Made by a program: the position numbers and the translations under genes. A stretch of DNA of 64,000 nt from Patescibacteria group bacterium (GTDB lineage: Bacteria > Patescibacteriota > Minisyncoccia > Phycocordibacterales > Phycocordibacteraceae), in the NCBI GenBank assembly GCA_018971045.1, contig JAGWVF010000005.1:10764-74763 (forward strand). The letters are read 5' to 3'. Positions 39,157 through 55,051 of this stretch are shown piece by piece (within the stretch, counting starts at the first letter, position 1; every line of letters begins with the position of its first letter). A model generated the notes under the pieces. The model did not search any database. It was not told the origin of the DNA and saw nothing but the letters and a program-made list of their open reading frames with translations.

Positions 39157-40476
39157 CTATTCCAAAGTCACTTTCCTATCCCTCATCACCAACCTGCTCT
39201 TGAGACACGCTAGCAGCTCCCGCTTCTCTGTAAGCGTCCCGTCGCGCAGCAAGTACTTCGCATAGCTGCGTACATCCACATCGGTATTGCGCTCCTTCGT
39301 TTTCATCCCGAGCACGCCGATGCGGAAGCGGTTGAATCGCGCGATCTCATCCTCGATCTTAGAGCGCATACCGATCTCATCCATGTCGACGGTGTCGAGC
39401 AAACCGGTTAGCTCCTCGATCAAATCTTTCTCATTGATCGGCGGATTCTTGCACTCGACACCCTTGCCGCGAGTGCACATGTAATAGACATGCCGATTGG
39501 TGCCGCCGTCCTTGAGCCGCTTGAATTTCTCGTCGGCGGTGATGCCGCTCTCGCAGTAGCCGCAGCATATCAGTTTTGTGAACGCGAATTCTTTGCTTTC
39601 TGTCTTGGGTATGTAGTGGTCTTGGATGGACGCCTGTACCCGGTCGAACAGCTCCTTGGCGATGATGGGCTGGTGCTTGCCCTGATACCAGTTGCCGCTC
39701 CCTGCCGGATACTCGAACTCGCCGTAGTAGAAAGGGTTGCGCAGGAGGAGGTAGACGTTCCCGAGGACGAGTGCTTTGCCGCTTTTCGTCTTGAAGCCGA
39801 TCTTTTTCAGCCATCGGTACACTTGCCGCCCGCTCCAGCTCTCGTTGCCGACTTTCTCGAAGATTTGCCGTACCGTGACCGACCGCTTCGGATCGATCCG
39901 CAGCTGCCCGCGCCGATCGAGGTGGTTTTCGTTGAGGTAGCCGGTCGGTGCGGGTCCCGGCCGCCAGCCCATCTCACATCGGGCCCGCAGACCGCGCTTC
40001 ACGTTGATGACTTTCTGATCGTTCTCCAGCTTCGCCTGCGATCCGAGAATCATGAGCATGAATTTCTCATTCGGGTTGTTCGTGAAGCGCTGCGAATAAG
40101 TGCGAATGTCGACGAGCTTGCCCTGGTCGATGAGATCGACGACTGCGCCAAGGTCTCCCGCGTTGCGTGAGAGCCGATCCGGCGCCCACGTGAGAATGCC
40201 GTTGAATTTGCCCTCTCGAATTTCTTTGAGCAGCTCGTTGTACACGGCACGCTGGCCGACCTCTTTGGAGGAGTGTGACTCGCGCTTGATCTCCGCGATA
40301 TGCAACCCCTCGCGCTCGGCGAGCGTCGTCATCTCCCGCACCTGCGAATCGATGGAGAGCGCCTGCTTGTCCTCTTCCTCGGTGCTCTTGCGGGCGTAAA
40401 GACAGTAGTTGACTGGTAATGGAACTGCGAGTGGTAATGGCCCAGAAACCCGATCTCTTGTGTAATGATTTCTCAT
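39157..40476 (-). CDS. large serine recombinase
   Basis: Resolvase catalytic domain (YARKSTEEE…SIDSQ), recombinase domain, and a C-terminal Cys-rich zinc ribbon (CCGYCE…C). Start trimmed to MRNHYT. Confidence 0.8.
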   Translation of the reverse strand: MRNHYTRDRVSGPLPLAVPLPVNYCLYARKSTEEEDKQALSIDSQVREMTTLAEREGLHIAEIKRESHSSKEVGQRAVYNELLKEIREGKFNGILTWAPDRLSRNAGDLGAVVDLIDQGKLVDIRTYSQRFTNNPNEKFMLMILGSQAKLENDQKVINVKRGLRARCEMGWRPGPAPTGYLNENHLDRRGQLRIDPKRSVTVRQIFEKVGNESWSGRQVYRWLKKIGFKTKSGKALVLGNVYLLLRNPFYYGEFEYPAGSGNWYQGKHQPIIAKELFDRVQASIQDHYIPKTESKEFAFTKLICCGYCESGITADEKFKRLKDGGTNRHVYYMCTRGKGVECKNPPINEKDLIEELTGLLDTVDMDEIGMRSKIEDEIARFNRFRIGVLGMKTKERNTDVDVRSYAKYLLRDGTLTEKRELLACLKSRLVMRDRKVTLE

Positions 40477-40576
40477 ATACCCCAAGGGATGACGCAACGG
40501 TCTGGGGAGTCCAGGCTCCCTCAAACTCGAGGAGTTGGTAACTCCGCTTCGCAAAACCCCGAGACTAAGTTAGGGT

Positions 40577-40798
40577 CTTGGACGGTAGACCCATTAAGAG
40601 CTATCATGTTCTATACAACTGAATATCAGTCGGCCTAAACCATAGTTTTCTATGGCATGGCCGAGAAGCCGTCCAAGGCAGAAAGCTCCTCGTCGGGAGC
40701 AACCTTGGACGGTCCCACCGGGAAACTGGTGGTGGGTGGCGCAAGCCATCGCCTGGCGGGGAGCTTTGTGTATTCCAGCCAGTAAAAACCGTCCAAGG
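40577..40798. repeat. four copies of CCGTCCAAGG in alternating orientation upstream of mod
   Basis: Copies at 40577-85 (reverse), 40669-78 (forward), 40704-13 (reverse), 40789-98 (forward, abutting the mod ATG). Confidence 0.45.
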
Positions 40799-40800
40799 TT

Positions 40801-42510
40801 ATGTCCGATATAAAACAAACCGAGCTCAACGCTCGGATCTCAGAATTAGAATCTGAGATCAAAAAATTGAAGAGTGCGAAAACCTACGGCCTCATTTGGG
40901 AAGATAAACCTGAGGACGTCATTTTGCAGTGCCGCGATAGTGTGCCGGTCCTCCGCGAGGTAAAGAATAAAAAGATTGTCGCCGATCCATCGTTACCGAC
41001 AAATCTGTTGATCGAGGGCGACAACTACCACTCACTCTCGGTCTTGAACTACACGCATCGCGGCCAATTCGACGTGATCTACGCCGACCCGCCGTATAAC
41101 ACCGGCAACAAGAGCTGGCGCTACAACAACGATTACATCGAAAAAGAGGACGAGTTTCGGCACAGCAAGTGGCTCTCGTATATCAATAAGAGGGTGCGCC
41201 TCGCCAAAAATCTTTTAAGCGATTCGGGCATTCTGATTTTCGCCATCGACGATTACGAAGCGCATACGCTTCGGCTCCTGCTCGACGAGATCATGGGCGA
41301 AGACAATCGGCTTGGCACCGTCGCCGTGGTACATAATCCGCGGGGACGGAACGACGATAGATTTTTCGCGACGCAGCACGAGTACATGCTCGTGTACGCG
41401 AAGGATAAAGATAAGGCCGTGCTCGGAAATTTCGACCTCACCGATGAAGAGCGCGGCCAGTACAAAAAGAGCGACGATATCTCATCGTATTCGGAGGCGT
41501 CGTTCATGCGTACCGGCAATAACTCCACTCCTCGGGAGCGTCCGAAACTTTTCTATCCGATTTTTTACAACCCGAAAACCCAGAAACTGTCGCTCAAAAA
41601 AGCGAAGGATTCGATTGAGCTTTTGCCGATCAACGAAGCAGGCGAAGAGAAAACGTGGCGCTGGGGCACGGCCACATTCGAGAAACTTTGCGATACGGAT
41701 CTGTTCGTCAAAACGGTAAAGGGCAAATACCGCATATTCAAGAAACGCCGCCTCACCGACGAGGCAGGAAAAAAGCCGAAATCGATTTGGTACAACCCGC
41801 GTTATGACGCCTCAACGTACGGCATCATGGTGCTTCAGGACATCTTTGGGCGAGGCAATCATTTTAACTATCCGAAGTCGTTGCTTTTGATGGAGGACAT
41901 CCTTGAGGTCACCTCGAAACCAGACTCGCTCGTTCTCGATTTCTTTGCCGGTTCGGGAACAACCGGTCACGCTGTGCTCAACCTCAATGAAAGAGACGGC
42001 GGCGCACGCCGGTTTATTCTATGTACAAACAACGAAAATAACATTTGCGAAGAAGTGACTTACGAACGAATCAAGCGCGTCGTAAAGGGCTACAAAGATC
42101 GCCGAGGCAACGCCGTCGATGGAGTGCTCGGCAATCTCGGTTACTACAAAACCGATCTCGTGAATATCGAAAAGCTGCAAACCATATCCGATACGGCCAG
42201 ACTCAAAATTACGTACCAGGCGGGCGAGATGATCGCGATCCGTGAAGACACGCTCGCAGAAAAGGAGAAAAATGAGTGGTGGCAAATATTCGAGGGGCAC
42301 GGTCGATCCACTGCTATTTATTTCAGAGAGGACAAATTGCGTCTCGGCGATCTCGTCAAAGAATTAAATGCCACTAGTAATCCTTCGACGCTCTATGTCT
42401 TCGGCTGGGGCAAGAACGACTACAAGAACGAGTACACCAGTCCGTTGATTCGCGTCGAGGATATCCCAGAGCCGATCATCGAAGTTTATAAGGAAATCAA
42501 TCGGCTCTAA
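40801..42510 (+). CDS. type III restriction-modification methyltransferase (Mod)
   Basis: DPPYNTG motif. The N-terminal LIWEDKPE…LLIEGDN block is typical of type III Mod. Confidence 0.8.
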   Translation: MSDIKQTELNARISELESEIKKLKSAKTYGLIWEDKPEDVILQCRDSVPVLREVKNKKIVADPSLPTNLLIEGDNYHSLSVLNYTHRGQFDVIYADPPYNTGNKSWRYNNDYIEKEDEFRHSKWLSYINKRVRLAKNLLSDSGILIFAIDDYEAHTLRLLLDEIMGEDNRLGTVAVVHNPRGRNDDRFFATQHEYMLVYAKDKDKAVLGNFDLTDEERGQYKKSDDISSYSEASFMRTGNNSTPRERPKLFYPIFYNPKTQKLSLKKAKDSIELLPINEAGEEKTWRWGTATFEKLCDTDLFVKTVKGKYRIFKKRRLTDEAGKKPKSIWYNPRYDASTYGIMVLQDIFGRGNHFNYPKSLLLMEDILEVTSKPDSLVLDFFAGSGTTGHAVLNLNERDGGARRFILCTNNENNICEEVTYERIKRVVKGYKDRRGNAVDGVLGNLGYYKTDLVNIEKLQTISDTARLKITYQAGEMIAIREDTLAEKEKNEWWQIFEGHGRSTAIYFREDKLRLGDLVKELNATSNPSTLYVFGWGKNDYKNEYTSPLIRVEDIPEPIIEVYKEINRL

Positions 42511-42511
42511 T

Positions 42512-44830
42512 ATGATTGCTCTCAAACCATTTCAAGAGACCGCTGTATCCAAGCTCAAGAACGAGTTTCTGTCCCTCTGGAAATCCTCGCGCATAAATAT
42601 TCCGCTGGTGTTTAAATCGCCGACTGGCTCAGGCAAGACGATCATGCTCGCGCAGTTCCTGCGCGATCTCGTCGGCGACCCACGCTTCCAGGGAAACGAT
42701 GTCGCGTTTATATGGTTCTCGTTCAGCGAGGATTCGTATCTGCAAAGCAAGAAACGGCTCTTTAGGTATTACGGCGGCGCGTCTGAACTCGATCTTCTCG
42801 ACCTCAACGATCTCACGCGCGGCAAGCTGGAAAAGAACAATGTCTTTTTTATCAATTGGCAGAAAATCAAAGGACGCTCGAAAGAGAGCCGCAAACTTCG
42901 CCGCCATAACGAGTGGGGCCATACGTTCGACAATTTCATTAATCGCTCCCATGCCGACGGCCGACAACTCGTCGTAATAATCGATGAAGAACACATCGGT
43001 TCGGATACCGATCTCGCCCTCGAGGTCGTCGAGGGGTTGATCAAGCCGCGCATTACCGTCCGCGTGTCGGCCACACCAAAATATATTCCGAATGCCGAGG
43101 AAATCTCCGACAAACGCAGCGGATTCCTGCAGGTCAAGCGTGATGAGGTGATTGAGTCTGGCCTCATCAAGGAAAAAGTCGTGTTTCAGACCGAGGAAGA
43201 TCTCGCGCGAAAAGAATTCAAGAAGATGGATCAGGACGATATCCTGCTTGAGCTCGCGTTCAAAAAGCGCCTCGGCCTCGCCAAACACTACAAGGCGTTG
43301 GACGTCGACGTTAATCCGCTTGTCTTAATCCAGCTGCCCAACGACGATCAGGCGGGCAAAGGCACCGGAACAAACAAGCAAGACATCGTCGTCGCTTTCT
43401 TGAAGCAACACGGCGTACGCAATGAGGAAATCGCAATCTGGCTGTCGCAAGAAAAAATGAATCTTGATGACATAGAGAAAAATGATTCACCAGTTTCGTT
43501 TCTTCTTTTCAAACAAGCTGCTGCGACGGGATGGGATTGTCCTCGGGCAAGCGTGCTGGTCATGTTCCGTGAGATCAAGAATCCGACCTTCGCAATCCAG
43601 ACGGTCGGCAGGATTTTGCGAATGCCGTTCGGTACCCACTTCGCGCAACCCGAACTCAACATTGGATATTTGTATACCAACTACAGGCGTGATGAAGTGC
43701 TTGCCGAGTATGCGCGATCTAAAAGCGACAATCGGCCGGCTATTAATGCAAGTTATCGAAAGCAGGACGTAACACCGGTGCGGGTGGATTCGGTATTCAT
43801 GAGTCGTACCGACTACAACGACCTCGGCGACAGTTTCCAAAGTACGTTTGAGAAAATTGCTGACGGCTATTTCGGATTGACTACAAGTCAGGGTGCAATG
43901 AACTCGCTGGAATCGAAAGGACTTGCTATCGGAGCGACTGTGACAAATGGACTCATCGTCGATGTCGAGATCGACGATTACGACAACTTTACAAACGAGC
44001 TGCTGACAGAGGGCAGCAGCCACGATCAAGAGATGTCCCAGTACGATCTTGAGCGCCTCTACAATTTGCTCTGCTTCAAGCTGATCGCAAAGCAGGTGGA
44101 TGAGAATAAGAAATTCGCACCGGAACGCTCGTGGGGCAAATTGAAAACAGCTCTAAACGTATGGCTATCAAAGTATATCGGGGATTCGCGTCACGAACTG
44201 TATACCGTTATCGTTTTTGATTTACTGAATCCCAACGGCGTACTCGCGCCGCTCATCGGTGATGCGCTCGCGGCATACCGCCCTATTCGCGAGCACGAGG
44301 TCAACAAAAAATCGGAACGTGCAAAGCGAACAGAGACCATTGAGATTCCCCGCGACTCACTTTTCTATACCGATCAGTTCAAGGAAATGAAAGTGTCGAA
44401 ATCCGCCATGACCCCCTTCTTTATCGAGAAGGACTATCAGGGAGAAGATAACGAAAAGGAATTTATCGCATTCCTTGAAGTGCACAAACGGGTTGTGTGG
44501 TGGTATAAGAACGGCGACGCCGGTAGCGAGTTTTTCTCGATCTCGTATCGCAACCCCGACGAGAATAAAGAAAAGCTTTTTTATCCCGACTGGATCGTAA
44601 AGACCAAAGATACCATTTGGGTAATCGATACGAAAAAGGGCGCGACGGCTGAACTTTCTGACACGAAGTACAAGGCCGAAGCGCTCCAGCAATGGCTCGC
44701 GACGCATAAAAATTTTCAAGGCGGCATTGCAGTTCAAGACGGTCCTAACGGCTGGAAGCTCAACAACTCTAAAACCTACTCGTATACGCAGTCGCTGAAC
44801 GGTTGGTCGCGTTTGGCAGATCTGTTTTAG
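42512..44830 (+). CDS. type III restriction endonuclease / helicase subunit (Res)
   Basis: SF2 helicase motifs (SPTGSGKT, VIIDEEH). Starts 1 nt after mod. Confidence 0.8.
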   Translation: MIALKPFQETAVSKLKNEFLSLWKSSRINIPLVFKSPTGSGKTIMLAQFLRDLVGDPRFQGNDVAFIWFSFSEDSYLQSKKRLFRYYGGASELDLLDLNDLTRGKLEKNNVFFINWQKIKGRSKESRKLRRHNEWGHTFDNFINRSHADGRQLVVIIDEEHIGSDTDLALEVVEGLIKPRITVRVSATPKYIPNAEEISDKRSGFLQVKRDEVIESGLIKEKVVFQTEEDLARKEFKKMDQDDILLELAFKKRLGLAKHYKALDVDVNPLVLIQLPNDDQAGKGTGTNKQDIVVAFLKQHGVRNEEIAIWLSQEKMNLDDIEKNDSPVSFLLFKQAAATGWDCPRASVLVMFREIKNPTFAIQTVGRILRMPFGTHFAQPELNIGYLYTNYRRDEVLAEYARSKSDNRPAINASYRKQDVTPVRVDSVFMSRTDYNDLGDSFQSTFEKIADGYFGLTTSQGAMNSLESKGLAIGATVTNGLIVDVEIDDYDNFTNELLTEGSSHDQEMSQYDLERLYNLLCFKLIAKQVDENKKFAPERSWGKLKTALNVWLSKYIGDSRHELYTVIVFDLLNPNGVLAPLIGDALAAYRPIREHEVNKKSERAKRTETIEIPRDSLFYTDQFKEMKVSKSAMTPFFIEKDYQGEDNEKEFIAFLEVHKRVVWWYKNGDAGSEFFSISYRNPDENKEKLFYPDWIVKTKDTIWVIDTKKGATAELSDTKYKAEALQQWLATHKNFQGGIAVQDGPNGWKLNNSKTYSYTQSLNGWSRLADLF

Positions 44831-44866
44831 GAGTAGGTTATTACTAATTTATTTATTTCTAACATC

Positions 44867-45586
44867 ATGAAAAAAGTTCTCCTCGTTTCCGTTCTCTCTT
44901 TAGCAATCGCCACCCCGGCCTTTGCTGCAGGCCCATACACTACTGGCCAGCAGGGATATGATGTCGGGTTTAATACTAGCTCGTTGCCGGTAGCACCATT
45001 CGGCTTCGGTGTGGTTGGTACCGACGGCGGTCGCGCGTATACACACAATCCCAACTTCGCTATCCAGTTCGCGTGGGCCAAGCAAGGCACCGATGCATCA
45101 GCTGTATACATGAACCTCAACACGGACGTCGGCAGCTACGTGCATGGCAACGTTTCGTCACCCAAAATCTGCAAGGGAGGCGACTCGCTCTGCAAAGCGT
45201 ACAACTATGGCTACAACGCCGCGGCCAGTTCCTTCGCATATGCAACGCAGCAGGGCGCAGCATCAACACTCTGGTGGCTCGACATTGAAACTGCTAACAG
45301 CTGGTCATCGAAGACCACAGTCAACGACGCAACTGTGCAAGGCGCAATCGATTACCTCAACACACAGGGCATCACGGTCGGCGTCTACGCTATCCCGAGT
45401 CAGTGGCAGCAGCTCATGGGATCAAGCTTCGTGCCAGTGCAAACCGGCGGTACTCCCAACTGGTACGCCGACGGCTATAACAGTAATTACGCGAGCGAGT
45501 GCAATGCACCGTTTATCCCAGGAAGTAGCGTCTGGCTGGTGCAGTATCTCCAGAACAGCACGACGGACAACGACTACGGATGCTAA
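44867..45586 (+). CDS. secreted protein, possible glycoside-hydrolase-like fold
   Basis: Signal peptide. LWWLDIE…GVYA pattern. Function uncertain. Confidence 0.45.
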   Translation: MKKVLLVSVLSLAIATPAFAAGPYTTGQQGYDVGFNTSSLPVAPFGFGVVGTDGGRAYTHNPNFAIQFAWAKQGTDASAVYMNLNTDVGSYVHGNVSSPKICKGGDSLCKAYNYGYNAAASSFAYATQQGAASTLWWLDIETANSWSSKTTVNDATVQGAIDYLNTQGITVGVYAIPSQWQQLMGSSFVPVQTGGTPNWYADGYNSNYASECNAPFIPGSSVWLVQYLQNSTTDNDYGC

Positions 45587-45589
45587 CCA

Positions 45590-46636
45590 TTATTCCTTCA
45601 GCCAGAACCAGAATCGGTTCCGCAATTCTTCCGCCAATTCATATGCATCCGCGTGAGACAAAACACCGAGGTACGAGCGCAAGGAGCCAGACAGGGTTTC
45701 TTCCCTAATATCCCCCTTCTTGTATGCAGATACATTTTCCCGCAGCTTGCGAAACATGCGATGCTCAGTCTTTTTTCTCAAAGCAATATGATGCGGCAGG
45801 ATAACGTAACCCAAAAAATCGATGCCTTGTCCATATGGCCGCAGAATGACTTTTCTGGGGTGAAGCTCCAGGCGGAGCCGTTGGGCCAAGAATGCACGTA
45901 TCGGTGGCAGCAAGCCTTCGAGGTACCTCTTATCGCACGATACTATTACAAAGTCGTCCGTGTACCGCGCATAATTCTTTACGCGCAGCCCGTGCTTGAT
46001 GAATTGATCGAACTCGTTCATGTAAATGTTCGCGAACAGCTGCGACGTAAGATTGCCAATGGGTATACCGCGTCGTTCAAAGAGCATAGCACTTGTCGAA
46101 AAGCTCTCAACGATTTCTCGCATGAGCCACATGGTGTCATCATCGCGGATTCTCTTCTGAAGAATCGCAAGCAATACATCGTGGTCGATCGAATCGAAGA
46201 ATTTTCGCACGTCGCACTTGAGCGCCCAACATTTCCTCGAGCCGTTCCGGCTCTCAGCTCGCAGCATGTCGGCTACGCTTTTCACACCCTTGTGCGTACC
46301 TTTCCCGATCCGGCACGAAAAGGATGTGGAAATAAAGGTGGGTTCAAAAATTGGATTCAGCACTCTGAAAATTGCGTGATGCAAGACACGATCCCTAACT
46401 ACCGCTTTATGAATGCGACGCAGCTTTGGATCGCGGATCCAAAAGCCGTAATAGCGACCGTGTTTGTACGTTTTATCGTGCAATTCGCGGCGCAATTTAA
46501 AAATTTCTTTTTCGACACGCTGTTCAAATTCGGCGACGTCGACTTTGTTCCGCTTGTCGCTTTTGAATATATCCCACGCCGCAAAAAGATTCTGTGCGGA
46601 CATTATTAGCGGAAAAATATTTTTACGTGTCTTCAT
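45590..46636 (-). CDS. reverse transcriptase of a diversity-generating retroelement
   Basis: RT motifs: LKCDVRKFFDSIDH (A), GIPIGNLTSQLFANIYMNEFD (B'), YARYTDDFVI (C). An alternative start MSAQNL is at 46603. Confidence 0.8.
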   Translation of the reverse strand: MKTRKNIFPLIMSAQNLFAAWDIFKSDKRNKVDVAEFEQRVEKEIFKLRRELHDKTYKHGRYYGFWIRDPKLRRIHKAVVRDRVLHHAIFRVLNPIFEPTFISTSFSCRIGKGTHKGVKSVADMLRAESRNGSRKCWALKCDVRKFFDSIDHDVLLAILQKRIRDDDTMWLMREIVESFSTSAMLFERRGIPIGNLTSQLFANIYMNEFDQFIKHGLRVKNYARYTDDFVIVSCDKRYLEGLLPPIRAFLAQRLRLELHPRKVILRPYGQGIDFLGYVILPHHIALRKKTEHRMFRKLRENVSAYKKGDIREETLSGSLRSYLGVLSHADAYELAEELRNRFWFWLKE

Positions 46637-46990
46637 ATGAGCATTGAAACCGACATGCCGATTTTTAAGAAAACGTATGATTTATACAAATCATTCCACC
46701 AACTGCGGGATTCAGTCCCTAAGCAGGATCGATACACGCTTTGGCAGCGCTGCGAGAATCTGCTTCTCGAAGTCTTTGAGGGCATTATGCTGGCAAGTCA
46801 GATGCCAAAATCAGATAAAGTACCCGTGTTGGAGCGCACAAGCCTCAAACTGAATTTTTTGCGCGTATTCATCCGACTCACAAAAGACGTGAAGGCCATC
46901 GACAACAAGAAATATCTTGCGATTGAAGCATCGCTCGATGAGATTGGCCGCATGCTCGGCGGTTGGATACGTTCGTCCAAAGAGCGCTGA
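46637..46990 (+). CDS. avd: Avd-like four-helix-bundle accessory protein (opposite strand to RT and TR)
   Basis: TIGR02436-like sequence (…SLDEIGRMLGGWIRS). Possible later start MPIFKK at 46655. Confidence 0.6.
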   Translation: MSIETDMPIFKKTYDLYKSFHQLRDSVPKQDRYTLWQRCENLLLEVFEGIMLASQMPKSDKVPVLERTSLKLNFLRVFIRLTKDVKAIDNKKYLAIEASLDEIGRMLGGWIRSSKER

Positions 46991-47037
46991 CGAGAAACGC
47001 CCACTGTAGTGGGCGTTCCCGGAGTGGAGAAATACTG

Positions 47038-47153
47038 CCGGGCAGAGGCGACACCCAAGTTCGAGTTCCGGTTGTCGTCCCAGTAGTTGTTGACGTTGAG
47101 CCCGTTGGCGTCGAAGTTGCCGACGTTGACACGGTTGCCGTCCGAGTCGAGAT
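47038..47153 (-). repeat. DGR template repeat (TR)
   Basis: 116 nt, near-identical to the VR. All mismatches are at TR adenines (minus strand). The 3' 22 nt are identical (IMH-like). Confidence 0.7.
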
Positions 47154-47451
47154 TATTGCCCGCTTCCGTCCATGACCCGCTCATACGCGGCACTGGATCT
47201 CGAGGTTTACCGAAGGGCTTACACCTCATTCCTATATCCTCTCAATCCTGAATTTTATTCGGGAGCAGCGTTCTTGCGAACGCACCTCCGCTGAAAACGG
47301 GCAAGAAGTTAAATCTCCTCCTCAATCGCGCGCTGCCGCAATCCGTAGACGGCGGCACTCTGGCGAGTCTCAAAGGTGAGACATCCCGCGAGGCTGAACC
47401 GTGATCCAGTCTGCATTAGCAGGATGCAATTACTCTAGCATATAAAAAAAC

Positions 47452-47488
47452 AAAGAGCCCTCGCGCTAAAAATTTTGCGCGAGGGCCC
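47452..47488 (-). terminator. rho-independent terminator of the DGR target gene
   Basis: gccctcgcgc-taaaaattttg-cgcgagggc. Followed on the minus strand by a T-run. Confidence 0.5.
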
Positions 47489-47526
47489 AAGGAATCAAGA
47501 GGAACAAGCCCTCAAGGATTCAAGGT

Positions 47527-48339
47527 TCAGAACTTCCGGGCAGAGGCGACACCCAAGGGCGAGTACCGGTAGTCGACCCAGTAGTCGTAGACGTAGAGCC
47601 CGCTGGCGTCGAAGTAGCCGACGTAGACACGGTAGCCGCCCGAGTCGAGACTGGAAGTGCGAACGTAGATGTCGTCCTCCAGCAGATAGACGTCGTTGAC
47701 GGCCTTGTAGGTCGTGAGACCCCAGGTCACCTCGGCGGCGTTTGGGACGTAGAGCGGCGATTGCACGAGAGCCCGCTGCTCTTCCCAGTTCTTGGACAGC
47801 GAGTCGTTGACCGGCTCCTTGCGGAGCGCCAGCCAGCCCAGCGCGTCGATCTTGTCGTTGCGGGAGAACTTCTCCTTGCCGTCGTCGTACCAGCCCTCGT
47901 CGTCCTGTTCCGGCCCCTTCGAGTAGAAGTAGTCGGCGTGCAGGGCGCGAATGTCGAGCATCGACATCGCCGTGGGCGGACCCGCGACGAGGAACATGCC
48001 GGCGTCGCGGATCGCTTCGAGCGTTGCCTTGTCGGGCAAGCTCTTGCCGAGCGCGATCAACTGATCCTCGGTGTACGTGAGGTCACGCGCCGTCGCGATC
48101 TGGTCGGCAGAAATGAAGTCCTTGCCGAGGATCGAACGGGCTTCGGTATAGTCCGGCAGCTTGGAAGTGAATCGGCTGATGCCGGCCACGATGTAGGCCT
48201 GGAATTCGCCACCGCGCTCGATGAGCCGTTGGATGCCGTCCTTGTCGGGGCTGACTTCCTTGAGCGCGCGATTGCTCGCATCCTCGACGAAGCGGGTGAA
48301 CTGCTTGGACTGGTCGGACGTGATCGATTGCATCGTCAT
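47527..48339 (-). CDS. DGR target protein with C-terminal C-type-lectin-like variable region
   Basis: 270 aa. C-terminus …SGGYRVYVGYFDASGLYVYDYWVDYRYSPLGVASARKF carries the VR. Confidence 0.7.
   Translation of the reverse strand: MTMQSITSDQSKQFTRFVEDASNRALKEVSPDKDGIQRLIERGGEFQAYIVAGISRFTSKLPDYTEARSILGKDFISADQIATARDLTYTEDQLIALGKSLPDKATLEAIRDAGMFLVAGPPTAMSMLDIRALHADYFYSKGPEQDDEGWYDDGKEKFSRNDKIDALGWLALRKEPVNDSLSKNWEEQRALVQSPLYVPNAAEVTWGLTTYKAVNDVYLLEDDIYVRTSSLDSGGYRVYVGYFDASGLYVYDYWVDYRYSPLGVASARKF
47536..47650 (-). repeat. DGR variable repeat (VR)
   Basis: Aligned to TR by eye. VR has Y/S/D/V/P where TR encodes N or D (AAC to TAC, AGC, GAC, etc). Confidence 0.7.
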
Positions 48340-48559
48340 CGTCGTTTCCTTTCGTTAGTTACTACCCGAAGCGCTCGGGCGGACGACTGTCTCGAAGTGA
48401 GACGAGTATTTTGAAGACCTGGGGAGATCTGCAAAGCACTCGTCTCACTATTTAAACCTTGAATTACAACGTTCTTTTCTAGGTGATACTTTATCATACT
48501 TGACCAATCTTGTCAACAAAACGCCAGCGGGGCTAATTGCCTTGGAAATGATATTTTCT

Positions 48560-49895
48560 CAACGGGCACCGCTCAGGCGTTCGCACTCCAGCGATTAAAA
48601 ACTCTAAATCTATGAAAACCAATGTATTGACCCACGAAGGATACCAGGAGCGCCTGAAGAATCTCCGTACGCCGGAGGATGCGGCGGCGTTTGCACAGGA
48701 AATGTTCGCCGCTACGCTCGCAAATCTGTCACGCACGCCAGTTGCGGAGAAAATCGAGAAAGTGGACGCTGCACCTATACCAGCCGAGGAGCAGACGGTA
48801 CGTACCACCAAGCAAGGCCGCCGTCCCACCATTGCGGAACTCGCGAGCAGACAGAACCCCGCAGCGAGCCCGTGGTACGAGGTCGCATCCAACGACAAGG
48901 AAGCGATGGTCATCTCGCTGTACGCGAAAGGCCTCACGACGCGCGACATTGCCACGTACATGAAATCGCATCATGGTGTCGAGCTTTCGCAGCCCGGCGT
49001 CTCGACGATCACCGACAAGGTATTTCCGCTCGTCAAAGAGTGGCAAACCCGTCCGCTCTCGTCTTGCTACCCAGTCATGTATCTCGATGGCATGCATTTC
49101 AAGGTGCGCGATGGAGGTAAAATCGTATCGAAAGTTGCCTACATCGCACTCGGCGTTAATCAGTACGGCATGAAAGAAGTTGTCGGAATCTGGGTCAGCG
49201 ACAGCGAATCGGCAAAATTCTGGATGGGCATTTTGAGCGACATGAAGAATCGCGGCGTGGACGACGTACTCATCGTCTGCGTCGATGGACTCAAGGGATT
49301 CCCCGATGCGATCAAGGCGATCTATCCGCAAGCCGAGGTGCAAGTCTGCATTGTGCACATGATCCGTCATACGGTCATGTTCATACCCCACAAGGATCGC
49401 GAAGCTTTCTGTAAAGATTTGCAACTCGTGTACACCGCTCCTTCGGAGGAGGCCGGGCGTGAAGCACTCAGAGAGGTCAGTGAGCGATGGGGCCAGTACA
49501 AAGCATACCTCAAAAATTGGGAGGATCGCTGGGAAGACCTCGCGCCGTTCTTTAGCTATCCGGCTGCGATCCGCCGCATGATATATACGACGAATGCGAT
49601 TGAGAATCTCAATCGGCAGTTCAGAAAAGTCACTAAGACGACTACCGTGTTCCCACACGACGAGTCGTTAATGAAACTGCTCTGGCTGGCGCAGGCCGAC
49701 ATTACCCAAGGCAAGACGCTTGCCGTGCGTAACTGGAACGAGATCATGGCACAGTTGTCGATAGCGTTTCCAGATCGCGTGCAGTTCTAGCCAGCAACCG
49801 TAATCATTAATCTACATCGCTGACGGCGCGAGCCGGACGGTGCCCTCGACAATGGCCGCATTGAGCGGCCGTTGTTCGTCTGTTGGTAAGCTCGC
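48560..49895 (+). mobile_element. IS256-family insertion sequence
   Basis: Mutator/IS256 transposase flanked by imperfect inverted repeats (TTGGAAATGATATTTTCTCAACGG versus TTAGAAATGGAAGTTTGCGAAGCG). Boundaries are approximate. Confidence 0.55.
48612..49790 (+). CDS. IS256-family (Mutator) transposase
   Basis: YLDGMHFKVRDGG…IWVSDSESAKFWMGIL…CVDGLKGF. Confidence 0.85.
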   Translation: MKTNVLTHEGYQERLKNLRTPEDAAAFAQEMFAATLANLSRTPVAEKIEKVDAAPIPAEEQTVRTTKQGRRPTIAELASRQNPAASPWYEVASNDKEAMVISLYAKGLTTRDIATYMKSHHGVELSQPGVSTITDKVFPLVKEWQTRPLSSCYPVMYLDGMHFKVRDGGKIVSKVAYIALGVNQYGMKEVVGIWVSDSESAKFWMGILSDMKNRGVDDVLIVCVDGLKGFPDAIKAIYPQAEVQVCIVHMIRHTVMFIPHKDREAFCKDLQLVYTAPSEEAGREALREVSERWGQYKAYLKNWEDRWEDLAPFFSYPAAIRRMIYTTNAIENLNRQFRKVTKTTTVFPHDESLMKLLWLAQADITQGKTLAVRNWNEIMAQLSIAFPDRVQF

Positions 49896-49930
49896 TTCGC
49901 AAACTTCCATTTCTAAGCTGGAATGGCACG

Positions 49931-50143
49931 ATGGCTATTCTCTCGCCACAGAGCGCTCGCGAACTTCGACGCATCATCAAGGAATCGACCGGTCGCGATA
50001 TCTCGCTCGGGGAGGCGTACGCCATTTGGCACTACCTCATTAAACTCCTACAGCTACTGTGGCGCATTGAGACGCGCAAAGAAGTACCTCCACCTCCGCA
50101 CCAGCTCAGCCTGTTCAGTAGGATGCCGCGCAAACGCCGCTAG
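49931..50143 (+). CDS. hypothetical small protein
   Basis: ORF trimmed to MAILSPQ. Convergent with the terminase gene. Weak. Confidence 0.2.
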   Translation: MAILSPQSARELRRIIKESTGRDISLGEAYAIWHYLIKLLQLLWRIETRKEVPPPPHQLSLFSRMPRKRR

Positions 50144-51759
50144 AATATCTTTTTCATGAGCCCTGCTGTAATGCCCTTGTGCCCACTGCGTGGCTCGATG
50201 TACGGATCATAACGGTGACTCGGTCCCTCATCGCTGATATCCACTATATACGGCGACTGGTACTCACCGCTCTTCCCGGGAGTGGGAGGTACGCTGTGTT
50301 GGCTGTGAGAAAACGGCGTGTAGCCGTCGTCAGATTTCCATACCTCGATCACAAGGAGCGAAAGCGCGTCGGCCAAGTCATCGTGGTTCTCGTGTCCGAA
50401 ACCGGTCAGCTGGGCGAGCAGCTCCTCACAGCCAGTCTCGGGAAAGAGCACCGAGCCGTTTTTGATGAGGTGGGATATCATCGCCAAGCGCGAACGCTTG
50501 TCGCCCCTTGAGGGTACGCCGATTGCCGGATACCGCTCCTTTTGGAGCATCTGCGGCAGCGCTTTCTGGTATGCATTGTCCTCGATGAACATCTTCGCCT
50601 TCAGGTTGTTGTATGCATACAGCGAGGAGAGAGCTTTCGCACGCTCAAGGGATGTCGGGAAGTCGAGCCATTCGTTGACCGGATGCGGCATGAGGTAGAT
50701 CTTCGCCTCCTCCCTCCAGCCGAAGACTCGTGCGACGACCATGGCAGTCTTGTCCGCTTTCTCGTGCTCGGCGATTGCTAAGTCCATGCCGATGAAGGAA
50801 CAACGGTACCGGTTCTGCGGGGTGAGTGCAGGCATATCTTTGTAATAGCGTATCCACTCCGGATGAATGACCCGTGTCGAGTCGGAGACGATCTCAAGCA
50901 GGTACTCCTGCCGCCACGCCATCTCGTTGGCGACACTCAATCGCAAGTCTTCGATCTTCTGTGCCGTGTCGAATTTGCCAGGCCAGAGGCACTCACCGCT
51001 TTCATTGAGGAGTGGGAACCAGCAGTACGTGCCCTTAAGCTTCTTCTCATCCATCATGCGTCGCAGCTTCATGACAAGTGCGTCTTCGTGGAGAAGGTTG
51101 CCCACGATGATGGTGCGCGTACCGATGTCGCCGAGTGGGATCACTTCGCGGGTGAACCAGTCGAAGAGCTTGGTGCGGCTCTCGTACGTCCGCGCGGACT
51201 GCATATCCTCGATGTCATCCAGTATCAGCAAGTCCGGTCGGTGCTCATGGTGCCTGATGCCGCGGATTGATTGGTCGACCGACGCAATCATGATGCGTGC
51301 GCCAGTATTTTGGAATACCAAGGACGAGATGGCCCACTCGCCGGTACTCGTATCCTCGCGAAAAGGCCCAAGGTCACTCTTAAGGAGCGTGTTGTGCTCA
51401 AGCTCGTACTTGAGGTTCGACATGTGCTGGCGTGCCTGCGCCTGGGTCTGACAGATAATTAGTACGAACTTCTTCTGTTGCACCCCGAGCGTCGCCCACA
51501 GCGAGTATGAGAATGTTACCAAAGTCGACTTGCCGGAGCCTCTGAAAGCGACAATGCATGCCAGCTTGTTGCTCTGGTCCTCGGTGATGCGAAAGATGTC
51601 TTTTTGGAATTCCGCTATTGGATAGCGGACGTAATGTGGGAAGTAGAGGTGGAAGAACATAGCATGGCTGTCCCGCGCGACTGCTTGCCGCACGAGCCGG
51701 TCTTTGGTAATTGCCTCGAACGATTCCTCGTCGAATCCTGTTGCTACTAGATTGTTCAT
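50140..51759 (-). CDS. phage terminase large subunit
   Basis: Walker A AFRGSGKST, LILDDIED, and a nuclease C-terminal half. Confidence 0.8.
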   Translation of the reverse strand: MNNLVATGFDEESFEAITKDRLVRQAVARDSHAMFFHLYFPHYVRYPIAEFQKDIFRITEDQSNKLACIVAFRGSGKSTLVTFSYSLWATLGVQQKKFVLIICQTQAQARQHMSNLKYELEHNTLLKSDLGPFREDTSTGEWAISSLVFQNTGARIMIASVDQSIRGIRHHEHRPDLLILDDIEDMQSARTYESRTKLFDWFTREVIPLGDIGTRTIIVGNLLHEDALVMKLRRMMDEKKLKGTYCWFPLLNESGECLWPGKFDTAQKIEDLRLSVANEMAWRQEYLLEIVSDSTRVIHPEWIRYYKDMPALTPQNRYRCSFIGMDLAIAEHEKADKTAMVVARVFGWREEAKIYLMPHPVNEWLDFPTSLERAKALSSLYAYNNLKAKMFIEDNAYQKALPQMLQKERYPAIGVPSRGDKRSRLAMISHLIKNGSVLFPETGCEELLAQLTGFGHENHDDLADALSLLVIEVWKSDDGYTPFSHSQHSVPPTPGKSGEYQSPYIVDISDEGPSHRYDPYIEPRSGHKGITAGLMKKIF

Positions 51760-52148
51760 ATTGATTTTTTAGTTAACTTTTCTGCTAATTCCATCGCCCT
51801 TTTAAAGTTCGCTTTCTGCTCCGGCGACATCTCCTCGATCACCTTGACCGCTCCTTCGAGTTCGATGCGCGCCTTGTACGTCGTATGGTTATGGCGCAAC
51901 CACGTTACGATCGCTGAGATGTTGCGATCCTTGATCGCTCCTATTAACTGACTTTCTGCGAGATCATTCACGAGGAGTCGCCCTTCGAGCATCGCGTCGT
52001 CGACTGCTTTCGAGAATTCCTTGCTCTCGGCCCGCCAGCGGTACAGCGTGACGCGGCTGATGTCGACCTTCTCGCACGCGATCTGAAGGATCGGCGTCTT
52101 GCGCAGCTGCTCAAGGAGCGCTTCTTTTGCTTTGTCGCTTTTCTTCAT
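51756..52148 (-). CDS. terminase small-subunit-like HTH protein
   Basis: HTH ISRVTLYRWRAESKEF. Start trimmed to MKKSDK. Confidence 0.5.
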   Translation of the reverse strand: MKKSDKAKEALLEQLRKTPILQIACEKVDISRVTLYRWRAESKEFSKAVDDAMLEGRLLVNDLAESQLIGAIKDRNISAIVTWLRHNHTTYKARIELEGAVKVIEEMSPEQKANFKRAMELAEKLTKKSI

Positions 52149-52918
52149 ACGCGCTTGGCTTTCTGCCCGGTTATCCGCTCCCACCGGCGTATCGCCGTCC
52201 TGCAATACTCGTAGTCGACCTCTACAGCGAAGCATCGGCGCTTCGTCTGTTCGCAGGCAAGGAGGGTGGTACCGCTTCCGAGGAAGCCATCGAATACCGT
52301 GTCGCCGATTTCGCTGCTGTTGAGGACGAGCCGTCGCACAAGGCCGGTGGGCTTCGTCGTGGGGTGCAGCTTGCTCTTATTCGGTCTTGGGTAGCACAGA
52401 ACCGACTTGTCCTTGGAGCGGTGGAAGTGGTGCGTGCCATACCAGCCGTAGACGATGAGTTCGTGCTGGGGCGCGTAGTCGAGGCGGCCGATGACGGACT
52501 GCTGCTTCACCCACACGAGGAGCTGTGCGATCTTGAATCCGGTGTCCGCCATGGCGTCCCTCAACGACCAGACCATTTTGTCGGCATTGAAGATATACGC
52601 ACTGTTTTTCTTGGCGAGGTACGGCAAGATGGCTGCGAGCCACGCCTTGCTGAACTGACGATACTCGTCGTCTGATTGCAGCTGGTCGTTCGCGATGTCT
52701 CTGTCCTTCGAGAGTGTGCGAAAGTTGCGTTTTGATTCTGCCACCGAAACTCCATATGGGGGATCGCTGCAGATGAGGTCAATCTTCTCTGCGCCAATGA
52801 GTTTCTTGAGGAGCTGTGGATCGCGGCAGTCGCCGTATGCGAGGCGGTGCTCGCCAAGCTGCCAGACGATGCCTGACTTAGGCGAGCTTACGTGCTTTTT
52901 TGCCGGTGAGTTTTTCAT
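52145..52918 (-). CDS. DNA methyltransferase (N6-adenine/N4-cytosine, DPPY)
   Basis: DPPYGV motif and FDGFLGSGTT SAM-binding motif. Confidence 0.8.
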   Translation of the reverse strand: MKNSPAKKHVSSPKSGIVWQLGEHRLAYGDCRDPQLLKKLIGAEKIDLICSDPPYGVSVAESKRNFRTLSKDRDIANDQLQSDDEYRQFSKAWLAAILPYLAKKNSAYIFNADKMVWSLRDAMADTGFKIAQLLVWVKQQSVIGRLDYAPQHELIVYGWYGTHHFHRSKDKSVLCYPRPNKSKLHPTTKPTGLVRRLVLNSSEIGDTVFDGFLGSGTTLLACEQTKRRCFAVEVDYEYCRTAIRRWERITGQKAKRV

Positions 52919-54140
52919 ATCGGTTTTTGATTACTGTTGCGAATATAGGGTCGACCTCACACAGAAATGCCCTGCGCTTCATTTGCTCGCACGCGACCAT
53001 GATGCTCCCAGATCCCGCCGTAAGATCCAAGACCGTATCGCCCACGCGCGTGCACCTGCGCAGTGCTTTTTCGTGTAACGTGGGCGGCTTTTGGGTCGGG
53101 TGTTCGTACTCACTCGCGGGCAAGCGTTTGACGAGCCAGATGTTGAACAAGTCGACAATTTCTTCAATAACGCGTGCACCGCTGCCAACCTCTTTGTTGA
53201 GAACGGTATTGAGATTCTTGAGCTGGTCGTTGATGTATGGAGATCCAATCGTTCCGTATACCGCGAATTCGGTCGCCTTGTTAAACGCTACCTTCGGAGT
53301 CGGCATCGCGTTGTCCTTCACCCATATGCACAGTCTTTTGGAGTCGATACCAAACTCTTGATACAGCTCCTGCAGAAGCCACACCCAGCGCTCGTCGCAC
53401 CAGAAGATATAGTGGGCATCCACTGCGCTCACCGCGATACTATTGGTGATGAGTGATTTCAGGAATGTGCGGTATTCAGTTGGCGATTTATCGTCCTTTT
53501 CGCTGCCACCATACTTTCCATTTTTGCCATCGTATCGGTATTTGATATTGAAGGGAGGGTCAACATCCACGAAATTGATTCGCGTGTCACCAACGAGTTT
53601 TCGCACTAACGCTTCGTCAGTCGCACTCGCACAGAGGAGCCGGTGATCGCCGAGCACGAGCAGATCGCCAGGTTCAACTGTCGGCTTTTTGATCTTTGCG
53701 ATTTCGGCGGCTTCGTCAAACTCATCGTCTTCGATTTCAAGCTGATCATCCCAGAGGTGCGATAAGTCATTTTCACCGAGAAGGTCGAGGAGAAGGCCTT
53801 GGTCGAATTCGCGCAACAGATTGTAGTCCCAGCTCCCGCGCAGCGCGTTGCTGGCGATAAGGTAGCGGTCGAATTCTTTTTTGGTTAGTTTTCTGTTTGG
53901 CACTCGCACGTCAATTTCACTGTCACCCATGCCCATTTCCATCAATGCTTTGTGACGGTGTGCGCCTGCGACGATGGTGCCGTCAATGTCGACCACAATG
54001 ATTTCCGCATACCCGCTCTGTTTCAGACTCCGCTTTAACTTCGAAAACTGCCGCTCGTCATTGACGTTCGGATTATCGTCGCGCGAGACAAGATCTCGCG
54101 CACGACGCTTCTCGTTGTGCCACATTAATTTTTCTGCCAT
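52878..54140 (-). CDS. ParB-like nuclease domain fused to DNA methyltransferase (DPPF)
   Basis: N-terminal ParB/Srx-like domain (IIVVDIDGTIVAGAHRHKA), DPPFNI motif, TAGSGS. Confidence 0.8.
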   Translation of the reverse strand: MAEKLMWHNEKRRARDLVSRDDNPNVNDERQFSKLKRSLKQSGYAEIIVVDIDGTIVAGAHRHKALMEMGMGDSEIDVRVPNRKLTKKEFDRYLIASNALRGSWDYNLLREFDQGLLLDLLGENDLSHLWDDQLEIEDDEFDEAAEIAKIKKPTVEPGDLLVLGDHRLLCASATDEALVRKLVGDTRINFVDVDPPFNIKYRYDGKNGKYGGSEKDDKSPTEYRTFLKSLITNSIAVSAVDAHYIFWCDERWVWLLQELYQEFGIDSKRLCIWVKDNAMPTPKVAFNKATEFAVYGTIGSPYINDQLKNLNTVLNKEVGSGARVIEEIVDLFNIWLVKRLPASEYEHPTQKPPTLHEKALRRCTRVGDTVLDLTAGSGSIMVACEQMKRRAFLCEVDPIFATVIKNRYEKLTGKKARKLA

Positions 54141-54244
54141 AATGATTAGTAATTAAGTGAATAATGCAGTGGTTGAATCTGCACTATCATCACAACAAAA
54201 AACGCAAACTTTCTACACACCCGCTTCGTCTAAAACAACGAAAA

Positions 54245-54270
54245 AACGCCCCGACTTTGGGGCGTTTTCA
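54245..54270. terminator. hairpin terminator aacgcccc-gacttt-ggggcgtt
   Basis: Perfect 8-bp stem flanked by A/T runs. Confidence 0.45.
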
Positions 54271-54289
54271 AATATTATGCACAGGGTAG

Positions 54290-55051
54290 TTAGCGGGTAG
54301 CGGGATATACACAATAAAACCTGTCGATGCAGTAACCCGAGCCGCGATTGCCTCGGATAAAATTTTCCGGTAGATGCAGGTCACCATCGATTTTTGCATT
54401 GATGGCTTGTACTAAGTTCTGCACCGCTTTCTGCGTGCATCCTAGATACTCCGCAAGGTCTGAGGTCAGCACATATTTTCTGCTCGCAAGGAGCTTTTCG
54501 ACGAGCAGGATGCGCTTGTTATCCTCTTTGTCCGAAAAAATGCATACGAAGCGGCGGCCTTGCACATGGCGATACAGCTCTTTGACTTCGCGGTCGTAGA
54601 ATAAGTCCATCCACATCTCTTGCGGAGCTTTTTGCGCGATAAGCGCGTTGAATTGGTCCTCCGGCAAGCGCATGGTCTGGTGCTCGGAGACCTCCCGTAC
54701 AGTCACGGTTTTTAGCAACTCGTTAAATTGACGAGACTCCATGCGCATCTCGCGCGGCTCATCATGACGCACAAGGACCACGCGCTCCCTGGTGGCAGGA
54801 ATGATGGCAGTTGGCATAAATTCATCCTGCGCTTTAAAGGCTATCGAGCGTGTGACACTTTCTCCGAGGATGGAGACGCGAGACATGGCAGACGCCATCT
54901 CGCTGGAAGCATTGCGGAGCGCATCACTCATAGCTGCTATTTGTTGGCCCGCTGAGTATATAGCGGGGAGGTGTGGTGCGACGGTTGCTGAAAGCCGCTT
55001 TCCGATCTCCTCAGCCTGCTGCTGGTATTGAGCTGGGATTTGCCTTTCCAT
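54290..55051 (-). CDS. hypothetical phage-associated protein with C-terminal winged-helix
   Basis: DLAEYLGCTQKAVQNLVQAINAKI. Confidence 0.4.
   Translation of the reverse strand: MERQIPAQYQQQAEEIGKRLSATVAPHLPAIYSAGQQIAAMSDALRNASSEMASAMSRVSILGESVTRSIAFKAQDEFMPTAIIPATRERVVLVRHDEPREMRMESRQFNELLKTVTVREVSEHQTMRLPEDQFNALIAQKAPQEMWMDLFYDREVKELYRHVQGRRFVCIFSDKEDNKRILLVEKLLASRKYVLTSDLAEYLGCTQKAVQNLVQAINAKIDGDLHLPENFIRGNRGSGYCIDRFYCVYPATR

Follow-up and report, generated by a model that had tools for sequence, protein, structure and literature searches.

Organization of the locus and its repeat pair

The locus comprises a target gene, a pair of repeats, an avd gene, and a reverse transcriptase gene, bordered by a gene for a secreted protein on one side and a transposase gene on the other. 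Coordinates refer to the window, by which we mean the whole stretch of 64,000 nucleotides analyzed.

44867-45586, (+): signal-peptide (secreted) protein, abutting the 3' end of the RT gene
45590-46636, (-): DGR reverse transcriptase (RT), 348 aa, RVT_1 E = 1.3e-21; fingertips DPKLRRI at aa 69-75, motif A at aa 139-151, IGNLTSQ at aa 193-199, catalytic YTDD at aa 225-228
46634-46639: CATATG junction, RT and avd start codons (CAT/ATG) directly adjacent with zero intergenic bases
46637-46990, (+): avd, 117 aa, opposite to TR, RT, and target; NCBIfam DivGenRetAVD, Pfam bAvd
47038-47153, (-): template repeat (TR), non-coding, 116 nt, with 27 adenines and 10 AAC codons in the VR frame
47527-48339, (-): target gene, 270 aa, with an N-terminal helical part and a C-terminal C-type-lectin/FGE-like domain
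47536-47651, (-): variable repeat (VR), the last 39 codons of the target before R-K-F-stop
47536-47557, (-): IMH-like 3' end of the VR, GC-rich, 22 nt, identical in the TR: CTTGGGTGTCGCCTCTGCCCGG
48612-49790: Mutator/IS256-family transposase, 272 nt upstream of the target start codon

The TR and VR align without gaps at an offset of exactly 498 nt, with 102 of 116 positions identical, and are the sole long direct repeat between positions 35000 and 57000. A first-pass annotation of this DNA had read the pair as a template repeat matching the 3' end of a target gene, with every mismatch on a template adenine, and had proposed that the two be aligned and the substitutions tabulated. The tabulation bears this out: all 14 mismatches replace a TR adenine (9 to T, 3 to G, and 2 to C), and none of the 89 non-adenine TR positions differs from the VR, a distribution with a probability of 5e-11 if 14 mismatches fell by chance on the 27 adenines among 116 positions (hypergeometric). 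Every one of them lies at codon position 1 or 2. The aligned peptides, ..GNFDANGLNVNNYW.. in the TR and ..GYFDASGLYVYDYW.. in the VR, had been quoted correctly. The same bias is seen at the protein level, as across 107 target homologues the codons containing TR adenines have an entropy of 2.63 bits compared to 0.82 bits for the other VR codons (Mann-Whitney P = 1e-5). No second VR was found in the window by blastn (word size 7) or by a regular expression treating adenines as wildcards and allowing 12 substitutions.

At the 3' end of the pair, the identity of the last 22 nt was likewise confirmed, and the first base beyond this block is C in the TR (47037) and A in the VR (47535). A non-adenine difference of the same kind, VR A against TR C, was counted at least once in each of four relatives (L005-L008), its position there being unmapped. 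The GC-rich block followed by the C/A divergence fits the pattern of an IMH in the VR and a differing IMH* in the TR, a pair that sets the direction of transfer in DGRs; the role would hold here on the model of the Bordetella phage DGR.

Reverse transcriptase, Avd, and target protein

As the first-pass annotation had proposed, a DGR-type RT gene lies downstream of the TR on the same strand. Its best PDB match, with residues 2-335 aligned at E = 2.1e-44, is 8ub7, the bRT of a Bordetella phage DGR described in a cryo-EM preprint (bioRxiv 10.1101/2023.10.23.563531). DGR RTs carry [I/V/L]GxxxSQ in place of QGxxxSP (PMC7826257), and the protein has this signature as IGNLTSQ; it also has counterparts of bRT R74 and I181, residues that promote adenine mutagenesis. 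An exact-protein look-up of the RT returned no record. The RT does match other models, those of the group II intron RT (group_II_RT_mat, 148.9 bits), Drt, and retrons, which might suggest that the TR is a partial duplication of the target 3' end, i.e., a pseudogene fragment, lying by chance beside an unrelated group II intron, retron, or defence RT. These scores are nonetheless far below the curated cut-offs (300 bits for group_II_RT_mat, 200-550 bits for Drt2-5, and 235 bits for the retron model, with AbiA/Abi models also far under theirs), and an RT of 348 aa is too short to hold a maturase or endonuclease domain as well. Together with the match to bRT as the best solved relative, the adenine-only mismatch pattern, and the recurrence of the repeat, avd, and RT layout in dozens of loci, this refutes chance duplication, to which we assign a negligible probability.

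The gene between the TR and RT, annotated earlier as Avd-like and on the opposite strand, scores above the cut-offs of both NCBIfam DivGenRetAVD, an equivalog model (88.4 bits, cut-off 80), and Pfam bAvd (E = 5.5e-17, 62.7 bits, cut-off 40). Between the TR and the avd stop codon lie 43-47 nt, and between the TR and the RT start approximately 400 nt. The start codons of RT and avd do stand back-to-back, as had been noted, although the palindrome said to surround them, AAAAATATTTTT, lies instead within the RT gene at 46613-46624, 10-21 nt into the coding sequence (RT codons 5-8, K-N-I-F). We considered this palindrome as a conserved regulatory element and rejected it, as relatives carry other AT-rich sequences at that site. 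Counting start-codon distances only where the RT N-terminus aligns (56 related loci), the avd start codon lying farthest upstream is directly adjacent to the RT ATG in 12 loci (13 counting this window), shares bases with it (CATG) in 6, and is 2-15 nt away in most of the rest. With no intergenic base between the two start codons, each promoter would have to sit within the other gene, so that RT and avd would be expressed from promoters embedded in each other's coding sequence.

The structure predicted for the C-terminal domain of the target (pLDDT 93) is a C-type-lectin/FGE fold with matches to TvpA, Mtd, and TaqVP, DGR variable proteins of solved structure, and the VR falls within this fold in the model, in agreement with the C-type-lectin variable region suggested earlier. 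Sequence identity with TvpA of Treponema denticola (2y3c) and TaqVP of Thermus aquaticus (5vf4) is only 10-18%. Foldseek searches against PDB and viral models gave only weak matches (E >= 0.06), to FGE/C-type-lectin families and jumbo-phage virion proteins; the N-terminal helical part had no match in these searches and no structural counterpart in TvpA or TaqVP. Neither a signal peptide nor a transmembrane segment is predicted, and the target is apparently cytoplasmic, unlike TvpA, which is a lipoprotein. The GC3 of the target gene is extreme; in nearly every locus it is the most GC3-rich gene, regardless of genome GC.

Altogether, each component named in the first-pass annotation is present and passes an independent test, i.e., of the RT, Avd, adenine specificity, and fold, and its interpretation of the locus as a DGR is supported.

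RNA elements and transcription

Three elements on the minus strand bear on how the cassette may be transcribed:

46994-47019, (-): post-TR stem-loop (stem of 11 bp, UACA tetraloop), 18 nt past the TR and just ahead of the avd stop codon
47252-47280, (-): sigma-70-like promoter match TTCGCA-17-TAAAAT, 9/12 to consensus, about 100 nt upstream of the TR
47455-47488, (-): GC-rich 12-bp hairpin followed by a U-run (tail CUUUGUUUUUUU), 39 nt past the target stop

The hairpin past the target stop looks like an intrinsic terminator of the target gene and is a candidate counterpart of the inverted repeat found downstream of the IMH in other DGRs; the 101-nt segment containing it folds at -36.5 kcal/mol (z = -4.0). 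The promoter match at 47252-47280 is a candidate for the TR RNA promoter, and another consensus match, at 48516-48488 between the transposase and target genes, is a candidate target promoter, such matches occurring at background frequency, with their number in the region not above the shuffled expectation.

An Avd-binding stem-loop of about 9 bp, often with a tetraloop, has been described directly downstream of the TR, with a putative form in 207 of 278 Avd-containing DGRs, CPR included (Handa et al., bioRxiv 10.1101/2023.10.23.563531). The stem-loop at 46994-47019 matches this published element and is a putative Avd-binding stem-loop. Per-sequence folding finds a hairpin at this site in 37 of 38 non-redundant related loci, with differing stem sequences; for 17 loci, RNAalifold yielded no consensus structure past the TR, since stems that differ in sequence are not alignable by MAFFT. 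In 25 of 37 relatives the hairpin leads into a T-run on the TR-sense strand, compared to 1 of 37 for the avd-sense strand, and this strand confinement suggests a discrete, terminated TR RNA. The stem-loop may thus also terminate the TR transcript, and as the hairpin is terminator-like on the TR-sense strand in most relatives, the RT and TR probably do not simply share one transcript. Another arrangement would be a single long minus-strand transcript through TR, antisense avd, and RT, like the TR-brt RNA of the Bordetella phage, with the post-TR hairpin serving only for protein binding and antisense transcription regulating avd. Such a transcript would accommodate the zero intergenic distance, which leaves no space for an RT promoter outside avd, as well as the weak post-TR U-run in this window (2 T in 9, weaker than in most relatives) and the requirement of Bordetella DGR RNA for sequence well downstream of the TR. 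Since the TR-sense-specific T-run after the hairpin in those 25 relatives is an intrinsic terminator signature, we regard the single transcript as possible but doubtful, and favor a terminated TR RNA.

No cPRT-stop-like long-range duplex, which in DGR RNA pairs sequences upstream and downstream of the TR (bioRxiv 10.1101/2023.10.23.563531), was supported in a single-sequence fold of 46930-47250(-), nor did this putative whole TR RNA fold better than shuffled sequences (z = -0.3). An Rfam search of 45500-48700 at E <= 1 gave no match.

Related loci, genomic setting, and proposed mechanism

CPR bacteria are enriched in DGRs. The first-pass annotation implied that the inverted avd was a novelty, but the order TR-(avd)-RT with avd reversed had already been described as architecture B3 and recorded in 90% of CPR DGRs (Wu et al. 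2018, PMC5758913), and DGR clade 2 is confined to Patescibacteria and has targets without recognizable domains (Roux et al. 2021, PMC8144416). The present locus has the B3 arrangement in an uncultured Patescibacteria host, and of 81 related loci, 77 carry an inverted avd directly upstream of the RT. TR/VR pairs with an adenine bias turned up in 44 related loci, and the inverted avd accompanies them in 41; in 38 of these, the order is VR, a gap of 260-517 nt, TR, a gap of mostly 2-82 nt, and the avd stop. With known CPR DGRs of B3/clade 2, the locus shares the host phylum, the order of target, TR, reversed avd, and RT, a target without a transmembrane segment or known domain, and a TR rich in AAC, its adenines falling at codon positions 1 and 2; there is no substantive difference. 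It is a genuine and ordinary CPR-type DGR: targets without domains, a reversed avd, and a stem-loop past the TR are each on record in earlier publications. The accounts of CPR DGRs in PMC5758913 and PMC8144416 do not name this MAG or the 270-aa target family, and make no mention of abutting or overlapping start codons or of very high target GC3. The three loci with a target homologue from the genome-contig scan (L002-L004) show neither RT nor avd nor TR within 3.5-6 kb, indicating that some family members lack an adjoining cassette.

With the Bordetella phage BPP-1 DGR (mtd-avd-TR-brt; structures 8ub7-8ube), the locus shares an RT homologous over its full length, with IGxxxSQ and the R74/I181 equivalents, an Avd homologue, a VR on a C-type-lectin fold located C-terminally, a GC-rich IMH-like end, and a stem-loop just past the TR. 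Unlike in BPP-1, avd is inverted and lies between TR and RT, so that no avd 3' end precedes the TR, and the stem-loop follows the TR at a distance of only 18 nt. The target is small and probably cytoplasmic, whereas that of BPP-1 is the phage tail-fibre tip, and the host element has terminase and integrase genes with no capsid or tail genes in view.

That element may be a conserved integrative island of approximately 16 kb, with a serine integrase, terS, terL, ParB-methyltransferases, and a restriction-type helicase, and no capsid genes. No direct repeats marking its ends were found, and it looks rearranged relative to L006/L007. The secreted protein had been placed beside the target; it flanks the RT instead, and the neighbour of the target is the transposase. 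In L033, the closest RT relative, a 90%-identical transposase gene lies just upstream of the VR-bearing region, and the transposase gene may therefore be part of the element.

We conclude, with a probability of roughly 0.93, that the locus is a complete and intact Patescibacteria/CPR-type DGR with the B3 architecture of Wu et al. (2018), in clade 2 of Roux et al. (2021). For its transcription units, priming, and retrohoming, we infer a course whose steps are modelled on the Bordetella phage DGR. Minus-strand transcription from within the 373 nt that part the target gene from the TR would yield a short non-coding TR RNA, and the stem-loop just past the TR would bind Avd. The RT-Avd complex would then prime in cis on the TR RNA and copy the TR into cDNA, the RT copying C, G, and U faithfully and inserting random nucleotides opposite adenines. 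This cDNA would replace the VR at the target 3' end, with the GC-rich 22-nt IMH-like block setting the 3' boundary. As many as 17 codons on the C-type-lectin fold, 10 being AAC, would thereby be recoded, with scaffold residues unchanged.

By the same analogy, mutagenic retrohoming may be taking place at this locus at present. The DGR might instead be an inactive relic, its cassette no longer working and its VR a fixed allele, for instance since the arrival of the transposase gene. The sole other copy of the target on record (L001, SRR32006838, a 958-nt contig) is identical to the window, and the VRs of L006 and L007, near-identical relatives from two samples, are also identical; the transposase gene so close upstream of the target and the rearranged appearance of the island point in the same direction. 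Against a relic, the RT is full length with its catalytic motifs, avd is full length, the candidate target promoter is still present, and the transposase gene may belong to the element, as its counterpart in L033 suggests. Moreover, a long-dead element should have gathered ordinary substitutions, of which there are 0 among the 89 non-adenine positions. We consider a relic unlikely and hold to an intact DGR.

A broader proposal joins several of these observations. The cassette would be cargo of a capsid-less integrative island. Its target, which has a lectin fold, no signal sequence, and a very strong codon bias, might then be no surface adhesin but an abundant intracellular hypervariable binder, e.g., one that senses invading phage or host-cell proteins. 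The RT and avd promoters, located in each other's first codons, would be mutually exclusive. As a whole this proposal is quite improbable; if it were true, such promoters would gate the frequency of mutagenesis. Across the clade, abutting or overlapping RT and avd starts would force overlapping divergent promoters; this, the confinement of the post-TR U-run to the TR-sense strand, and the GC3-rich target gene may be of interest to DGR specialists. The value of the locus is as a clean and intact example of a CPR-type DGR, with one target, one TR, and zero non-adenine noise between TR and VR.

Adenine-restricted differences between the repeats

The first-pass annotation had read the stretch listed below as a diversity-generating retroelement (DGR) with an inverted avd (accessory variability determinant) gene, in which a non-coding template repeat (TR) and a variable repeat (VR) differ at template adenines only.

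45590-46636, minus strand: reverse transcriptase (RT), 348-aa ORF, Pfam RVT_1
46637-46990, plus strand: avd, 117-aa ORF, NCBIfam 'diversity-generating retroelement protein Avd' and Pfam bAvd
46994-47019, minus strand: post-TR stem-loop, 11-bp stem with a tetraloop, 18 nt past the TR
47038-47153: TR
47455-47488, minus strand: 12-bp GC-rich hairpin with a U-run, 39 nt past the target stop codon
47527-48339, minus strand: target, 270-aa ORF with the VR at its 3' end
47536-47651: VR

In an ungapped comparison, the two repeats were offset by exactly 498 nt and shared 102 of their 116 bases. The 14 mismatches all fell on TR adenines, where the VR carries T (9), G (3) or C (2), and no mismatch was seen at the 89 TR positions occupied by C, G or T; as the TR has 27 adenines, the probability that 14 random mismatches would all land on them is P = 5e-11. 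The computed alignment bears out the earlier claim of adenine-only mismatches, and the repeat coordinates and peptides quoted with it were correct. Every mismatch occupies codon position 1 or 2 in the target reading frame, and the TR contains ten AAC codons. The 3'-terminal 22 nt are identical, and the first base beyond them differs, with C on the TR side against A on the VR side. TR and VR form the sole long direct repeat within 35000-57000, and no further VR-like copy was found in the whole window, including when adenines were treated as wildcards.

It is unlikely that the DGR was recently silenced or is a relic; the lack of any non-adenine difference between the repeats, together with the intact RT, avd and TR, speaks against a long-dead element. 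The sole further record of the target carries the same DNA sequence. Likewise, the VRs do not differ between the related loci L006 and L007, the only near-identical pair of relatives, which come from two samples and agree at 99.994% over 17.9 kb. By analogy with the Bordetella system, a working DGR at this site would have the TR RNA bind RT-Avd via its stem-loop, cDNA synthesis would be primed in cis, adenines would be miscopied, and the cDNA would take the place of the VR as far as the IMH-like block at its 3' end.

RT, Avd and their arrangement among relatives

By far the closest solved structure to the RT was 8ub7 (E = 2.1e-44), one of the chains in the bRT-Avd-RNA complex of the Bordetella phage DGR, with RT residues 2 to 335 aligning to residues 3 to 316 of that chain; because the alignment already includes residue 2, the annotated ATG at 46636 is the true RT start. 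The RT contains YTDD and, at aa 193-199, IGNLTSQ, the DGR form of a motif for which group II intron and retroviral enzymes have QGxxxSP (PMC7826257), as well as equivalents of bRT R74 and I181, both of which have been shown to promote mutagenesis at adenines (PMC7826257). Scored as a group II intron maturase, retron, Drt2-5 or AbiA, the protein fell far under the curated cut-offs. Avd scored 88.4 bits against its NCBIfam family (cut-off 80).

Relatives were gathered via the target, and via the RT in metagenomes and IMG/VR, yielding 93 related loci with an RT match, or 94 sequences including the window as a control. In 77 of the 81 loci with at least 450 nt upstream of RT, avd lies directly upstream on the opposite strand, the four exceptions being three viral RTs of distant relationship (33-34%) and a match that was only partial. 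TR/VR pairs with an adenine bias could be recognised at 44 related loci. In 41 of these avd is inverted as well, and the order VR, 260-517 nt, TR, mostly 2-82 nt, avd stop codon was found in 38 of the 41. Architecture B3 of Wu et al. (2018, PMC5758913) is TR-(avd)-RT, with parentheses denoting the reverse strand, and DGR clade 2 is confined to Patescibacteria, its targets typically showing neither transmembrane domains nor any others that can be recognised (Roux et al. 2021, PMC8144416). The inverted avd, initially singled out as a remarkable trait, is thus not unusual but the published norm for this lineage.

Start codons were compared in the 56 related loci with an alignable RT N-terminus, taking the most upstream avd start codon. 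The RT and avd starts abut (CAT/ATG) in 12 of these, or 13 with the window, overlap as CATG in 6, and are 2-15 nt apart in most others; the abutment is a feature of the clade. The palindrome proposed to surround these back-to-back starts did not hold up, as AAAAATATTTTT sits at 46613-46624, within the RT coding sequence and across codons 5-8, and is not retained as a palindrome among relatives.

A hairpin was present at the post-TR position in 37 of 38 non-redundant relatives with unrelated stem sequences, so pairing is preserved even as the sequence changes. A T-run follows on the TR-sense strand in 25 of the 37 and on the avd-sense strand in 1. Since Handa et al. (bioRxiv 10.1101/2023.10.23.563531) describe the stem-loop, the element itself is not new. 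That it is oriented like a terminator suggests that the TR RNA is short and discrete; in the window, the U-run is weak. In more distant relatives, the stem-loop overlaps the avd stop codon or 3' coding end. The hairpin at 47455-47488 is read as the target's putative terminator and may be the counterpart of the inverted repeat that a third of DGRs carry downstream of the IMH. Sequences resembling promoters precede both the TR (47280-47252) and the target (48516-48488); these are consensus matches no more frequent than background. No Rfam family matched, and folding around the TR lent no support to a long-range duplex.

A candidate integrative element

The window is chromosomal, evident by FtsH, LepA, RecG, a tmRNA gene and five tRNAs, and the DGR lies within a block of about 16 kb (39157-55051).

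10910-11316, minus strand: tmRNA gene, tag peptide AKSPYFSMKDFAFAHAVA
tRNAs: Ile(tat), Ser(gga), Gly(ccc), Arg(cct), Phe(gaa)
39157-40554: large serine integrase
40801-44830: methyltransferase and ResIII helicase
44867-45586: signal-peptide protein, between the helicase and the DGR
48612-49790, plus strand: Mutator/IS256-family transposase
50140-52235: terminase large and small subunits (terL, terS)
52145-54140: two ParB/methyltransferase genes
54290-55051: HTH protein

In L006, L007, L008 and other related loci, the DGR is flanked by homologues of the integrase, methyltransferase, helicase, terS/terL and ParB-methyltransferase genes, so the cassette is apparently carried by an integrative element that is conserved. 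Such homologues were likewise seen around the DGRs of L034, L035 and L072. The block contains no capsid, portal or tail genes, and no att-like direct repeats were found flanking it. The transposase gene is divergent from the target, 272 nt off its start codon; because L033, the locus with the most similar RT (78% identity), carries a transposase gene of 90% identity (L033 1-1068) just upstream of its VR-bearing region, the gene may be part of the element rather than a random insertion. Elsewhere in the window, a 222-aa ORF (28298-28966, minus strand) has a weak IS200-like Y1 transposase match and a low GC3 (0.53).

The target family and its codon bias

The target matched no Pfam, NCBIfam or PHROG family, and no hydrophobic segment was found in it. 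Its homologues in public data number at least 265 and are about 260-270 aa long, among them a 100% match, a hypothetical protein of 'Patescibacteria group bacterium', and others from Vogelbacteria, Pacebacteria, Saccharibacteria and Kaiserbacteria genomes. An AlphaFold2 model built from a 107-sequence alignment reached a pLDDT of 93.3; no match was found for the N-terminal helical part.

Across 107 homologues, mean entropy was 2.63 bits at the 17 VR codons with a TR adenine at position 1 or 2, compared to 0.82 bits at the other 22 VR codons (P = 1e-5) and 1.14 bits in the rest of the protein (P = 2e-7), and the scaffold YVRTSSLDSxGxRVxVGxFDAxGLxVxxxWxxxRxxxLGxSSARKF is otherwise almost invariant. 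With variation concentrated where the template has adenines, the whole family looks like a family of DGR targets. Three homologues of 66-80% identity (L002 6001-6804, L003 3490-4296, L004 6001-6621), from two genomes of Saccharibacteria and one of Kaiserbacteria, lack an RT, avd or TR in the surrounding 3.5-6 kb and may be remote targets or remnants of lost cassettes. The window has one target; some relatives have two in tandem per single TR (L006 5664-6422 and 7218-8027; L008 1-216 and 493-1305), both VRs differing from the TR with adenine bias.

The target also has the highest GC3 (0.87; A3 0.05, T3 0.08) among the 39 long ORFs of the window (median 0.67), evenly along the whole gene, against 0.57 for both RT and avd. 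In 37 of 37 relatives, as in the window, the 700-nt stretch that ends at the VR exceeds RT in GC content, the mean gap being 17 points. No local ORF surpasses the target in GC3 at 17 of 19 loci, and this extends to genomes with 31-45% GC; in one of the two exceptions, the wrong ORF was apparently picked (L005, 316 aa versus the called 269-aa target). Wu et al. (PMC5758913) discuss GC only for the whole cassette versus the host. Because the housekeeping gene FtsH ranks second in the window (0.80), codon adaptation to high expression is a reasonable guess for the target.

Altogether, the TR/VR, RT, Avd and target-family evidence supports the DGR interpretation, and the element belongs to a well-described kind of DGR. 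What remains for specialists is modest: the overlapping divergent start sites, an Avd-binding stem-loop that resembles a terminator, and the target's codon bias.
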